This document shows, piece after piece, positions 17,922 to 23,445 of a stretch of 64,000 nucleotides of DNA (within the stretch, counting starts at the first letter, position 1; the number at the start of each line of letters is the position of its first letter). Under the pieces are notes generated by a model that was given only the letters and a program-made list of their open reading frames with translations, did not search any database and had not been told where the DNA came from. This DNA comes from Promethearchaeota archaeon. GTDB taxonomy: Archaea; Asgardarchaeota; Lokiarchaeia; Sigyniarchaeales; SOKP01. Where the stretch lies: positions 192,001 to 256,000 of the forward strand of contig JAUVNS010000005.1 in NCBI GenBank assembly GCA_030599585.1. The letters run 5' to 3'. The position numbers were made by a program, and so were the translations under genes.

Positions 17922-18833
17922 ATGGATGATAATTGTATCGAATCTTATATAAAAGCAGGTAAAGCGGTAAAGGCTGCTAAAGAATTAGCCAGAACCTTAA
18001 TTAAACCCGGAGTGACTTTTTTAGAAATAGCGAACAAATGTGAAGAAGAAATTATCAAGCAAGGATGCGAATTATCATTTCCTATAAATATGTCCCTTGA
18101 TAATCATGCTGCCCATTATAGCCCAACAATTGACGATCCAACAATTGTACCTGATAGAGGATTATTAAAAATAGATTTAGGGTCTCATTATGATGGTTAT
18201 ATTGCAGATTCTGCAATCACTATTAATATAAATGATGATCCCGAACTGCAAAACTATATTGATGCAGCTACGGAAGCGCTTGATGCTGCTATTAAACTTT
18301 TTAAGCCTGGAACAAAACTATATGAAATTGGAGAAGCGATTGCTGAAAAAATACTTAACCGAGGGTTGAGACCTATAACTAACCTTGGTGGCCACGAATT
18401 GAAACAGTACAATTTGCATGCGGGTCCATTTGTTCCTAACTTTAAAGATTTAAATCACAAAAAAGTTATTCAACCTGGTGAAGTTTACGCGTGTGAACCT
18501 TTCGCTACTTCTGGTGTAGGATTAGTAATCAACGGTAAGATATCTTATATTTATCGTTTTGCTAAGAGGGTCAAAAAAAACCTTCCATATGACGAATTAA
18601 ACTACATGAATAAAATAGAAAAACTGACTAATTCCTTACCATTCTCGCCACGTTTAATCGAAAAACATAATATCATCCCAAAAAACAAAATCCAAAAAAT
18701 AATTGAAGTTTTTATAAGAAAAAGAATATTAGATCATTACCCTCTTTTAATAGAAAAGACTGGTGCTCCAGTTGCTCAACAGGAGCATACAATACTAATA
18801 GATCTAGATGGAAATTCAATTGTCACCACTTAA
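17922..18833 (+). CDS. map: Methionine aminopeptidase type II
   Basis: AAHYSP, KIDLG.H.DGYIADSA, NLGGH....YNLHAG, EPFAT, AQ.EHT. Confidence 0.95.
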   Translation: MDDNCIESYIKAGKAVKAAKELARTLIKPGVTFLEIANKCEEEIIKQGCELSFPINMSLDNHAAHYSPTIDDPTIVPDRGLLKIDLGSHYDGYIADSAITININDDPELQNYIDAATEALDAAIKLFKPGTKLYEIGEAIAEKILNRGLRPITNLGGHELKQYNLHAGPFVPNFKDLNHKKVIQPGEVYACEPFATSGVGLVINGKISYIYRFAKRVKKNLPYDELNYMNKIEKLTNSLPFSPRLIEKHNIIPKNKIQKIIEVFIRKRILDHYPLLIEKTGAPVAQQEHTILIDLDGNSIVTT

Positions 18834-18843
18834 TACCAAATTT

Positions 18844-19692
18844 ATGGAAAATCTCACAATTGTTATTCTTTGTGCAGGTGAAGGGAAACGCGCTAAAGGA
18901 ATTGCGGATGATATCCCGAAGCCATTAATAAAAGTCGAATCATTAAAGAATCAATCTATTCTTACAATTCTAATATCACATTTATATAGATTTGGTATTA
19001 AACCAATTGTAATAGTAACTGGATACTTAGGTAAACAAATTGAGAAAAATATTATATCATCTCAAGCAAAAAACACTTCCAAAAGCGAAACGATAATAAT
19101 CATCAACGCTGGAAATCGATATAAGTTAGGCCCTTTGCATTCTTTTTTGAGCATAACAGGAAATAAACAGGTTTTTAAAACCAACGAACTTTTTCTAGTT
19201 ATTCCGGGAGATACAATTTTTGACTACAAGCTTATGGAAGAAATTTTAAATTTGCTTAAAGAAAATTACGATGAAGCTAATCAGAATTCCATTATTTTTT
19301 ACCGAAGAACTACCAAAATAGCATTAAATAAAGAGACCGAAAAATATAAACTAATGAGTAATAGAATGGTATCTTGTGTAAGAACCAAGGAAAAAGGCTC
19401 AAAACAATATGTCAAAGAAATATATAATAGAAATATGAATGCATCATCAGATGATGAAGAATTCAATCAGATTATCCCGGCGTTCATTATTACTTATGAT
19501 TACGTGAAAAATTTTGAGGATATTGCTAGTAAGATAAAATTGAATAAGATTGTTGATGCAATAAACTTATCAATCAAAAACGATATGGAATTTTCAGCGT
19601 GCAGGGTTAAATCAGATCATAATTTTTACGATATTGATACTGTTCTCGATTTAACATTTTTGAACAGGCATTATAAAAAAAGTGGACAATAG
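18844..19692 (+). CDS. Sugar-phosphate nucleotidyltransferase family protein
   Basis: ILCAGEGKR......PKPL, PGD and DIDT motifs; ATG at 18844 follows the map stop. Confidence 0.8.
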   Translation: MENLTIVILCAGEGKRAKGIADDIPKPLIKVESLKNQSILTILISHLYRFGIKPIVIVTGYLGKQIEKNIISSQAKNTSKSETIIIINAGNRYKLGPLHSFLSITGNKQVFKTNELFLVIPGDTIFDYKLMEEILNLLKENYDEANQNSIIFYRRTTKIALNKETEKYKLMSNRMVSCVRTKEKGSKQYVKEIYNRNMNASSDDEEFNQIIPAFIITYDYVKNFEDIASKIKLNKIVDAINLSIKNDMEFSACRVKSDHNFYDIDTVLDLTFLNRHYKKSGQ

Positions 19693-20157
19693 TAGCTCCG
19701 ATTATCACAGAAAACTTGTTTCAATGGATCATCTTCTTTGTTCCAATGAATCGCATCTGGGATCAAAGCCCTATTGACTATAAAACTCATTTTAAACGAG
19801 GGCCTTCATGTTTTAATGTCACGTGTAGCAAGTGGAAATATTATTCGTTCAACAAGAGATCAGGCAAAACAGCTTCAAATTACCGTAGACTAACTTTAAT
19901 TAGAACTTGATTGCGCTTCTCTACTAAATAAATGCTTCAGCGTGAAAACTATTGAAAGCGTCCAAAATTAATAACAAATGATTATTGTGTATTCAGCAGT
20001 ATGAAAAAATTAACAAATAAATCCGATTGGAAATCAATGTATACGCACTAACTCTGGGTGAAAAAAATTCCAGATCTTAAGAATCAATTTGCAACAACTA
20101 CTCCGTTGTTTAAATTGCACTCACGTATCAAAAACCAATGATTTAAACTATTGTCCA
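19683..20157 (-). ncRNA. Candidate large (~475 nt) structured non-coding RNA, family unrecognised
   Basis: 11-bp perfect terminal inverted repeat (19683-19693 / 20147-20157), many nested helices whose imperfect pairs are G-U on the minus strand, TTTAAATA box about 23 nt upstream, U7 tract right after the 3' stem, no credible ORF. Confidence 0.7.
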
Positions 20158-20178
20158 AATATTTAGTGGGAAATTGTA

Positions 20179-20193
20179 TATTTAAATCTTACT
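20179..20193 (-). promoter_or_regulatory. Putative archaeal TATA box plus purine-rich BRE for the candidate ncRNA
   Basis: Minus strand AGTAAGA-TTTAAATA, then 22 nt to GGACAATAG, the usual archaeal promoter spacing. Confidence 0.55.
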
Positions 20194-20290: not shown

Positions 20291-20671
20291 ATGTCTATGA
20301 AAATAAAAATTGATCTTTTTGGAATAGGAACCATCAACGGTGAGATAATTCGGTATTTAGCGCCATTATCGGCTGATGCAATAATTAATAAGTTGCCAAT
20401 AATACTAAGAGGAAGGTTTAGTTTTGGATCAAAAGGCTTTTGGACTCTCCCAGGGCTTGAAATTTATAAGGGAACTAATACAAAATCTAATAAAAATGTA
20501 GAGAAAGGCGATATCATATATAATCCTAAATCTGATGAATTAATATTTATTTTAGACGACACAGAATTACAAACTAAAGTAAATAAAATCGGAAAGGTTA
20601 CTGAAAATCTCGAATTCTTTCTGCAAGCGAAGAATGGTTTGAATACCAAAATTTCTAAGATGAAATCATAA
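20291..20671 (+). CDS. Cyclophilin-like fold protein (DUF369-like)
   Basis: AP.SADAIINKLP, VEKGDIIYNP..ELIF, VNKIGKV pattern. Confidence 0.7.
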   Translation: MSMKIKIDLFGIGTINGEIIRYLAPLSADAIINKLPIILRGRFSFGSKGFWTLPGLEIYKGTNTKSNKNVEKGDIIYNPKSDELIFILDDTELQTKVNKIGKVTENLEFFLQAKNGLNTKISKMKS

Positions 20672-21537: not shown

Positions 21538-21705
21538 TTACTTTTCGTTATTCTTTAGGCAGTTTTTACAAACGAACACGACCTTTCGCTTATCTTTTGA
21601 ATTCTCGTCGTAGTAGACTCGTTTATATATATAATTATTACAGACATTGCAGAAAGCGGTTGTTCGAGCCTCTTCTAATAAGGGCCCTAGGTTTTCAAAA
21701 GTCAT
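21538..21705 (-). CDS. Small CxxC...CxxC zinc-finger protein (55 aa)
   Basis: Manual translation MTFENLGPLLEEARTTAFCNVCNNYIYKRVYYDENSKDKRKVVFVCKNCLKNNEK*; ATG 9 nt after the Alba stop; shorter than any ORF in the track. Confidence 0.75.
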   Translation of the reverse strand: MTFENLGPLLEEARTTAFCNVCNNYIYKRVYYDENSKDKRKVVFVCKNCLKNNEK

Positions 21706-21714
21706 AAATCAATT

Positions 21715-22044
21715 CTAGAGTGATTTTGAGAGGGTTATTTCGATTTTAGAAATTAAATCCTTTTTATTTTTATTATTATAATTGTTTCTGTTGTTTTTTC
21801 GATAGTTATTCCTTTGCCTATTTTCATAGAAGGGACGGCTCCCTAACGAGACCTTTGCTATTTCTACTCCGGGATACATTCGTTTTTTTAAGATTTCAGC
21901 AACTTCAACCGCAGTTGAAATTTCTTCTCCTTCCCCTTTTATTAATAGCGATTTTGTCCCTCCTGAAAATGCAAAAATTGCATCCTTTATAGTTTTCTCC
22001 CGATCTGTTCGATTTCTTATTATTAGGGTTGTACTAATAGGCAT
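21715..22044 (-). CDS. Alba-family DNA/RNA-binding protein with Asn/Arg-rich insertion
   Basis: LLIKGEGEEISTAVEVAEILKKR...V.LGS...ISKIEITL matches the Alba core. Confidence 0.8.
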   Translation of the reverse strand: MPISTTLIIRNRTDREKTIKDAIFAFSGGTKSLLIKGEGEEISTAVEVAEILKKRMYPGVEIAKVSLGSRPFYENRQRNNYRKNNRNNYNNKNKKDLISKIEITLSKSL

Positions 22045-22245: not shown

Positions 22246-23445
22246 TTATAAATTGAATTCAGCACGACTCATTAAATCATCTAATACCTTGCTATATTCA
22301 GAAATCCTTTCCTCGAAATGTTCAATTATTTTTCGTTCATCTGTATCTAGATAATCAAAAAAGGGTGAAATTTTTTCTATTTTTTTGGTAAAATCATTCA
22401 TGATTTTTGTGTACCACTCGTTCGGCTTAGACAATATTTCATTTAGCTTTTTTTTGTATTTCGCCTTCTTTTTATTGAATTCATGATTATTCTTCTCAGC
22501 GTTGAGTTCAGAAAGATTTGTCTCATACTTTTTTAATTCTTTTTCAATTTTTTCTCTAAACTTTGGAATTCTGTAGATTTTTTTGTTGATATCAGGATCC
22601 CATTCATATAAATAGTAATCCTCGGTTTCAGCTTCTATTTCATCGTCGGTTATTTTAATGTCTCTTTTTAAAACCATAATAAGACCGAAATTCCTTTGAA
22701 GTTGAGCAAGATATCTTTTTCGTAAAATTTCGTCTATGTATTTAATTTCAGTTAGAACGCCCTTCATGTTTTTATTGATTTCTTTTACTACTTTATCAAC
22801 ATTTTTAACCATCTTCTCCATAGTGCCTTCAAACTTTAATTCTATTGAGTTTGAATACGTAGCGAACATACCGCGGTCAGGATTTTTCAATCTTATTCCA
22901 GCTATTCCTAAATAATATGATTTAGATTCCTTTTGGCAATGATCAAAAACAAGAGCAATAGCAAATGGGTTAACTCCTTGGTAAAAAAGTTGTGTTTCAA
23001 TATCTCTAGGTGAAAAAATAAATCCGATTCCCGGATGAGTGTGCCACCAGCCTACGAAGAAATCTTCTTTATCATCTTGAATTGCTCTCTCAAAAATCGC
23101 AGTATTAAACTGAGCTGTGTCAACATAATGCTTACTCTTATATTCAACATATGCTCTATCGCCAACCATAACGGGGATTGCATCCTTAATGACTACTTCT
23201 TTATTTTCCTTAATCGACCCAATTAATATACCGTAAACTTCACGCCAGGTTTTTTGAGGAAGGTCGTTGTTCCCGTATCTCATTGCATAACCAACAATGC
23301 GTTTATAAGCGTTGTATGACAAAAATACCGGCGTGATTGCCGGATCAATCCCGTACTTTTGAATGTAGGAATCTCTATTTGACATTTCGATGATTTCATT
23401 AGTATCGGATAATAAATTATCTTCCTTTTCTTTTTGAAGTTTCAA
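22246..23445 (-). CDS. MPN/JAB (JAMM) metalloprotease-domain protein with long helical C-terminus
   Basis: EVYGILIG and VGWWHTHPG.....SPRD..TQ intact JAMM motif, ALVFD; coiled-coil-like C-terminal half. Confidence 0.85.
   Translation of the reverse strand: MKLQKEKEDNLLSDTNEIIEMSNRDSYIQKYGIDPAITPVFLSYNAYKRIVGYAMRYGNNDLPQKTWREVYGILIGSIKENKEVVIKDAIPVMVGDRAYVEYKSKHYVDTAQFNTAIFERAIQDDKEDFFVGWWHTHPGIGFIFSPRDIETQLFYQGVNPFAIALVFDHCQKESKSYYLGIAGIRLKNPDRGMFATYSNSIELKFEGTMEKMVKNVDKVVKEINKNMKGVLTEIKYIDEILRKRYLAQLQRNFGLIMVLKRDIKITDDEIEAETEDYYLYEWDPDINKKIYRIPKFREKIEKELKKYETNLSELNAEKNNHEFNKKKAKYKKKLNEILSKPNEWYTKIMNDFTKKIEKISPFFDYLDTDERKIIEHFEERISEYSKVLDDLMSRAEFNL

Follow-up and report, generated by a model that had tools for sequence, protein, structure and literature searches.

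Few large housekeeping RNAs are known in archaea, namely rRNA, RNase P RNA and SRP RNA; 6S, 7SK and CsrB are protein-titrating RNAs. Among large orphan ncRNAs of bacteria, OLE RNA is 577 nt long and binds at least six proteins, and ROOL/GOLLD-type RNAs form homo-oligomers through kissing loops (PMC12286853). Our analysis concerns a 64,000-nucleotide window, i.e. the whole stretch of DNA that was analysed, from a Promethearchaeota archaeon of the Lokiarchaeia. In this window, the gap between a nucleotidyltransferase (NTase) gene and a DUF369 gene contains a single ORF of 64 codons, which is attributable to chance. An earlier note on this DNA had proposed that the gap holds a new large Asgard ncRNA with its own promoter and terminator, and the coordinates that it gave for the inverted pair, the TATA box and the A7 tract are all correct. 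As judged from comparative sequence data, positions 20156 to 19683 (minus strand) are very probably a real stand-alone ncRNA gene. The locus is organised as follows (coordinates are those of the window):

18808..19692, plus strand: nucleotidyltransferase gene, convergent neighbour (Pfam NTP_transf_3)
19675..19681, minus strand: U7 tract, likely terminator (A7 on the plus strand)
19683..20156, minus strand: ncRNA gene of ~474 nt, with homologues across one family (f1) that share no conserved ORF, and no match in Rfam
19683..19693, minus strand: 3' arm of the closing stem P1
20147..20157, minus strand: 5' arm of P1, forming an 11-bp inverted pair with 19683-19693
20179..20193, minus strand: putative archaeal promoter, with a BRE-like purine tract (20193-20187) and the TATA box TTTAAATA (20186-20179)
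20291..20671, plus strand: DUF369 cyclophilin-like gene, divergent neighbour (Pfam PF04126)

The RNA is AU-rich (~30% G+C), and its longest AUG-initiated ORF in the source genome spans merely 11 aa. Its start is predicted at G20156 (±1), where the stem begins, from the usual geometry of archaeal promoters. The closing stem proposed in the earlier note is borne out: an equal stem was obtained in 0.6% of 1000 base shuffles of the gap, and in 68 homologues pairs 1-10 are paired in 97-100% of cases, with compensatory changes at pairs 1, 2, 4, 6 and 10 and U-G wobbles at pairs 4 and 10, although such cross-genome counts come from related sequences and overstate independence. Covariation within P1, as read from these alignments, is the strongest structural evidence for an RNA. 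Five of the pairs are invariant across the same 68 homologues while others covary, a degree of fixation which goes beyond the needs of pairing and suggests sequence-specific recognition. The overlap of the 3' end with the convergent gene, also pointed out in the note, is real in the source genome, where the NTase stop codon sits within the 3' arm, but is not conserved, being missing in several genera.

Upstream of the stem, AGTAAGA lies immediately 5' of TTTAAATA (minus strand), and 21 nt separate the TATA box from the 5' arm. The TATA columns are invariant or nearly so across 58 aligned homologues, in most homologues the distance between the box and the initial G of the stem is 29-31 nt, and the promoter accompanies the RNA even where DUF369 has ceased to be its neighbour. 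A U-tract was required in calling the ends of homologues; when each of the 35 metagenome matches to the 3' end was retrieved without this filter, the tract was present in the 30 whose 5' end lay on the contig. An own promoter and terminator are supported by conservation. Folding is less informative: set against shuffled controls, the gap of the source genome has z-scores of only -1.8 (minus strand) and -1.1 (plus strand), unremarkable by themselves, and both strands fold with similar scores across 16 homologues. Since folding energy does not discriminate, the minus strand is assigned from the order of the predicted promoter and U-tract, together with U-G wobbles in conserved helices. The G-U pairs previously taken to point independently to the strand make a weak argument, since three of the helices listed in the note are unconserved (see below). 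Short inverted ends, a partly fixed sequence and strand-neutral folding scores could also suit an element acting as DNA (inverted repeats of a MITE, an invertible segment or an origin). Such an element is most improbable, however, given that the unit is single-copy at a fixed locus, keeps a constant orientation relative to the promoter, has its TATA box at fixed spacing and its U-tract outside the repeats, and tolerates U-G wobbles in the stem while conserving them in the 3' hairpin P5.

In a search at the DNA level, most genomes of the genus turned out to carry the region at the corresponding place. In order to go further without using the RNA sequence, we collected the DNA upstream of DUF369 from 40 genomes of other genera, and a unit of the same plan was found at 36 of these 40 loci. 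Three of the four exceptions represent one genus, in which the RNA has moved together with map and the NTase gene (observed in two genomes); the fourth (L105, genome G082 C87) retains only the 5' half at this place and carries a full copy at a second, duplicated locus. The complete homologue set, including further public records, amounts to 117 distinct sequences, part of which were gathered with a motif or U-tract filter, the synteny set alone being unbiased. Homologues range from 344 to 633 nt in length (median 482 for 71 measured), and large internal deletions occur; constraint is concentrated at both ends, with a highly variable interior. The RNA ends are ~70% identical in relatives, versus 30-49% protein identity for the NTase in most of them, with values down to about 30% in distant members. 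The NTase gene is linked to the RNA 3' end in nearly all loci. In one genome (L220:2275-2816, genome G053), an 18-bp unit forms a tandem array immediately 3' of the NTase gene.

Every one of the 13 genera sampled from one Lokiarchaeia family carries the RNA. The pattern of promoter, stem and motif occurs in 76 of 134 family genomes versus none of 265 other Asgard genomes, control matches within the family being zero. Likewise, a profile of the 5' end recovers, with E values no worse than 3e-6, all 18 family genomes searched, of which four had not been used for training, while nothing better than 5e-4 was obtained in 61 other Asgard genomes, and the 5' and 3' profiles together yielded no credible match in 61 genomes outside the family; these outside searches rest on a 90-nt AU-rich profile, which a diverged homologue could escape. 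Thirteen weak places outside the family were inspected and rejected, as they lie within ORFs or lack a convincing closing stem and U-tract, and a looser search pattern returned pure noise. The element is absent from the map-NTase and DUF369 neighbourhoods of three single-contig sister-family genomes, and no such element was found around DUF369, map and NTase genes in other Asgard families. Six bacterial and three viral pattern matches have no neighbouring genes and no 3' arm (in one, the sequence ends only 128 nt beyond the match), and we take them as chance. A record labelled as a Nanopelagicaceae bacterium (L173) holds the entire archaeal locus, as do several labelled Odin-, Hod- or Hermodarchaeota; the labels or bins of all these records are probably wrong. 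All genomes examined are metagenome assemblies, and all matches of the metagenome scan lie on contigs longer than 1 kb and longer than the RNA. The RNA thus appears to be a single-copy chromosomal gene restricted, within the sensitivity of the models, to one Lokiarchaeia family.

The interior of the RNA is organised into several hairpins:

19694..19770, minus strand: 3' hairpin P5, abutting the 3' arm of P1 and containing U-G pairs in tandem and a U-rich 2x2 internal loop
19809..19859, minus strand: hairpin ending in conserved GAGAC/GUGAC, followed 6 nt on by ACA (helix 87% paired)
20053..20074, minus strand: hairpin P3b with a U-rich loop (88% paired and 6 double changes in 19 close relatives)
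20093..20110, minus strand: hairpin P3a (92% paired in 19 close relatives)
20127..20142, minus strand: weak hairpin P2 with the motif CAUUGG (20140-20135) and a loop that opens with GG

The six nested helices of the earlier note can all be drawn, and we checked them against pairing across 19 close relatives and against the predicted ensemble. Helices 20110/20093 and 20074/20053 (P3a and P3b) hold. The helix 19806/19765 holds in part: it is 83% paired, and its outer half competes with a helix missed in the note (19769-62/19702-695), paired at 97% in close relatives and with a probability of 0.99 for most pairs. The remaining three, 20145/20018 (71-75% paired), 20128/20041 (60%) and 19999/19921 (59%), are unsupported, with pair probabilities of 0-0.29. 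In P5, helices are 89% paired over 43 sequences, versus 33-47% in slid registers, with a middle segment at just 57%; in close relatives the values reach 96-97%. Distant genera possess a hairpin of different sequence at the position of P5, and a hairpin adjoins the 3' arm in the genera inspected. Over the 3' domain, 81% of cells are paired, again versus 33-47% in slid registers, and the score exceeds those of 498 out of 500 shuffles, with double changes in only 6 of 27 pairs. Internal covariation thus appears weak in these alignments. RNAalifold with default settings returned no structure from the 3' alignment, and a de novo scan for pairs by mutual information was swamped by phylogeny. The sequence AUAGGAG, considered as a Shine-Dalgarno-like element, was rejected, as it varies and pairs locally. 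The size and orphan status of the RNA are reminiscent of ROOL and GOLLD, and one may envisage a similarly ornate assembly made of RNA only. We consider this very unlikely, in view of the poorly conserved interior, of the lack of conserved palindromic or complementary loops in our searches, and of the chromosomal location of an RNA that was not found in viral contigs.

No Rfam model matched at E up to 10 at the source locus or up to 3 at 20 homologous loci, in agreement with the note's failure to recognise a family; the OLE, ROOL and GOLLD models gave no match, and no description of this RNA was found in the literature searched. The SRP helix 8 motif is found in none of the 117 homologues, and the SRP RNA of the genome is encoded on contig C22 (E 1e-13). 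The latter (C22:27027-27283) scores only 63.8 bits across 257 nt, short of the gathering score that Rfam sets (96.5), and may be divergent or partial. Box C (RUGAUGA) was found in 1 of 117 homologues versus 9.6 in shuffles, the Sm pattern in 56 versus 44 by chance (an Sm-like site at 19969-19962 is retained only in the closest relatives), and U2 and U6 motifs at chance level in the 117 homologues. Ro60 (TROVE, PF05731), expected alongside a Y RNA, was not found in the source genome or in two family members, nor was the major vault protein (PF01505), expected alongside a vault RNA, in three family genomes. A Vault (MVP) repeat above the Pfam cut-off was noticed in a Lokiarchaeia genome assembled as one contig, within a frame of 551 aa (G055 C1:3073492-3073611). 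A reverse transcriptase, which would accompany a telomerase- or retron-type template RNA, is not encoded at the locus, and reverse transcriptase matches elsewhere are unlinked, vary in size and are absent from one family genome that is 92% complete.

The closing stem, the similar size and a nearby Alba-fold gene might suggest a degenerate paralogue of RNase P or MRP RNA, and the earlier note had indeed offered a highly divergent RNase P/MRP-like RNA as one reading. This origin is highly improbable. A canonical RNase P RNA, sought as the note had recommended, is encoded on contig C7 of the same genome (130 bits). CR-I, the absence of which had been correctly noted, is at chance level in the 117 homologues, and so is CR-V (one strict match in 117 for each; 41 loose CR-I matches versus 47 in shuffled sequences). 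The supposed echo of CR-V at the 3' end dissolves as well, because UCGGAGC pairs with a local strand and the P4 pseudoknot of RNase P is absent.

Mimicry of tRNA offers another way to account for the paired ends: in a tmRNA-like RNA, the closing stem would stand for the acceptor arm, the GG loop for the D-loop and the 3' hairpin for a substitute of the T-arm. Consistent with this, the stem begins with GG and ends with CC plus an unpaired base, UC(G/A) is found ~17 nt from the end base, a tRNA-like spacing, in 19 of 38 homologues, and in some homologues the GG comes close to positions 18-19 of tRNA. However, ARAGORN found no tRNA or tmRNA at the source locus and four homologous loci, the stem is 10-14 bp long, the T-loop consensus and a conserved ORF are lacking, and the end base varies (A 44, U 20, C 6, G 1), so that mimicry seems quite unlikely, and the note was right that tRNA/tmRNA hallmarks are missing. 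Two genomes of another family carry a tRNA-Arg(CCU) gene starting with GGAC at the same place, but this neighbour is seen in one genus only and a genome of the RNA-bearing family has its tRNA-Arg(CCU) elsewhere; we therefore rejected an origin of the RNA from this tRNA, the position being a probable coincidence. Several observations on tRNA genes were made in passing. In one genus of another family, tRNA-Arg(CCU) is convergent to the NTase gene (L100:5668-5744 and L216:1017-1091). A further tRNA-Arg(CCU), missed by ARAGORN, has an insertion after the anticodon arm that is likely a non-canonical intron (L232, G107 C1:2701442 onward). In the source assembly (rated 100% complete), ARAGORN lists just 21 tRNA genes, several of them doubtful, and intron-bearing tRNAs were probably missed.

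Near the 5' end, 35 of the 36 homologues that were collected solely by synteny have CAUUGG 2-14 nt past the 5' arm; one homologue (L084, genome G095) has neither CAUUGG nor part of the stem. The P2 hairpin scores 4.8 versus 4.3 ± 0.1 in controls, among kin that are not independent. For CAUUGG, no conserved long-range partner was found within the RNA itself (mean z -0.1), nor was a conserved partner found in rRNA, RNase P RNA, SRP RNA or tRNA-Trp. A near-invariant hexamer lacking an internal partner could nevertheless serve in trans, as in a guide or chaperone RNA pairing with the CCA end of uncharged tRNA (a T-box-like UGG) or with pre-rRNA (as do snR30/U17 and U3). UGG followed by U or A could pair with NCCA, and an 8-nt complement exists in the 16S rRNA of two genera. 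Yet the bases after GG vary (UUU, AAU, AUU) with no matching rRNA change seen, matches of 7-10 nt are expected by chance, and the 23S sites are unconserved. The hairpin at 19809..19859 bears on the same question: a K-turn-like tandem GA is recognisable in many homologues, and five genera have the GAGAC hairpin with a variable ACA after it, while the same pattern was undetected in five others. In contrast to H/ACA and snR30/U17 RNAs, the triplet varies (ACU, UCA, UCU), is internal rather than terminal and lies 8 nt instead of 14-16 nt from the stem, and the tandem GA is unconserved, being broken in the source genome. Altogether, a guide function seems rather unlikely.

The stem is fixed, the hexamer is fixed and CAUUGG has no conserved partner in the RNAs searched, which makes recognition by a protein the simplest account. 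Moreover, with constraint confined to the ends, a nearly two-fold range of lengths and internal deletions, a scaffold fits better than the core of a ribozyme. As a whole, a stable RNP-scaffold RNA of one Lokiarchaeia family is the explanation that we tentatively favour, and the RNA may plausibly act as a protein-binding scaffold or as a titrating RNA; the guide, tRNA-mimic, RNA-only, RNase P-derived and DNA-level alternatives are each less likely. In the scaffold model, the TATA box would drive transcription of a stable RNA, in which the sequence-fixed P1 and the CAUUGG/GG-loop hairpin would adjoin at the base of a multi-arm fold. A protein would read the P1/CAUUGG junction, leaving the arms in between free to vary, and the likeliest role of the RNA would be to bind this protein and to titrate or organise it, in the manner of 6S, 7SK, CsrB or OLE RNAs.

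The only candidate partner that we found is encoded nearby. The Alba fold is an RNA/DNA-binding fold, and eukaryotes recruited the Alba-fold proteins Rpp20/Rpp25 to RNase P, MRP and telomerase RNAs. Rpp20/Rpp25 are reported to bind the P3 arm of RNase MRP RNA (PMC2896528). The neighbouring gene is the following:

21715..22044, minus strand: divergent Alba paralogue with an Arg/Asn-rich insert, candidate partner

All 22 other family genomes contain close matches to this paralogue, with none outside the family; in the tree it stands apart as a long-branch clade (support 100/100), and in 55 loci its distance to the RNA is 1.5-2.1 kb. Three sister-family genomes have a single canonical Alba, to which the paralogue is an addition, and the source genome has two canonical Alba genes besides it. 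KGEG replaces the basic KARG, a hairpin insert is rich in Arg and Asn, and both sequence and fold place the protein nearest to archaeal chromatin Alba2, not Rpp20/Rpp25. Its co-distribution with the RNA is not special, since a neighbouring VTT gene has nearly the same family boundary. In addition, a distant Asgard genome that does not carry the RNA also has an Alba gene close to DUF369, and one genus shows the RNA relocated away from Alba. That the paralogue is the partner of the RNA is accordingly doubtful, and so is the reading of the pair as a novel archaeal RNP, in which an Asgard lineage independently recruited an Alba-fold protein to a long ncRNA. Other features of the neighbourhood include an unannotated 55-aa ORF with two CxxC motifs directly 3' of the Alba paralogue (~21538-21705, minus strand) and, at window positions 22246-23445 (minus strand), a gene for a protein that has a JAB/MPN domain and a long, helical C-terminal part and is similar to subunits of the proteasome lid or the signalosome. 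At another locus (L278 ~2560-2640, G277), the Alba gene close to DUF369 has a short insertion after IGKKPT that breaks the frame and may be a small intron.

Family-wide conservation, stem covariation and the absence of Rfam matches support the proposal of a new large Asgard ncRNA. The gene appears to define an undescribed RNA class with no detectable kin among described RNA families: an RNA of 350-630 nt with its own promoter, spread across a family of >130 Asgard species, would constitute an unrecorded class. It occurs in the archaea closest to eukaryotes, where long ncRNAs with fixed ends and free arms can evidently arise; it was not found outside the family, and nothing here makes it ancestral to a eukaryotic RNA.

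Compared with described systems, archaeal RNase P RNA (RF00373) and eukaryotic RNase MRP RNA share with this RNA paired ends, a stand-alone single-copy gene and a comparable length, but not CR-I, CR-V or the P4 pseudoknot, and the true RNase P RNA of the genome is a separate gene. With tmRNA and tRNA-like RNAs it has in common paired ends starting with GG, a 5' GG loop and a hairpin beside the 3' arm, without T-loop, tag ORF or fixed identity elements. The likeness to snR30/U17 and archaeal H/ACA RNAs is limited to the K-turn-like hairpin and following ACA of some genera; here the ACA varies, is not terminal and does not have the expected spacing, and neither a pocket nor a conserved rRNA complement accompanies it. 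OLE, ROOL and GOLLD resemble it in being several hundred nt long, in their multi-arm folds, in their discovery by comparative genomics and in their unclear function (PMC12286853); unlike them, it is archaeal, AU-rich and constrained mainly at its ends, with no sequence or model match and no kissing-loop signal. Finally, 6S, 7SK and CsrB show no homology to it, and GGA is not enriched over its complement; the likeness lies only in the proposed mode of action, that of a stable RNA combining fixed protein-binding elements with variable arms.
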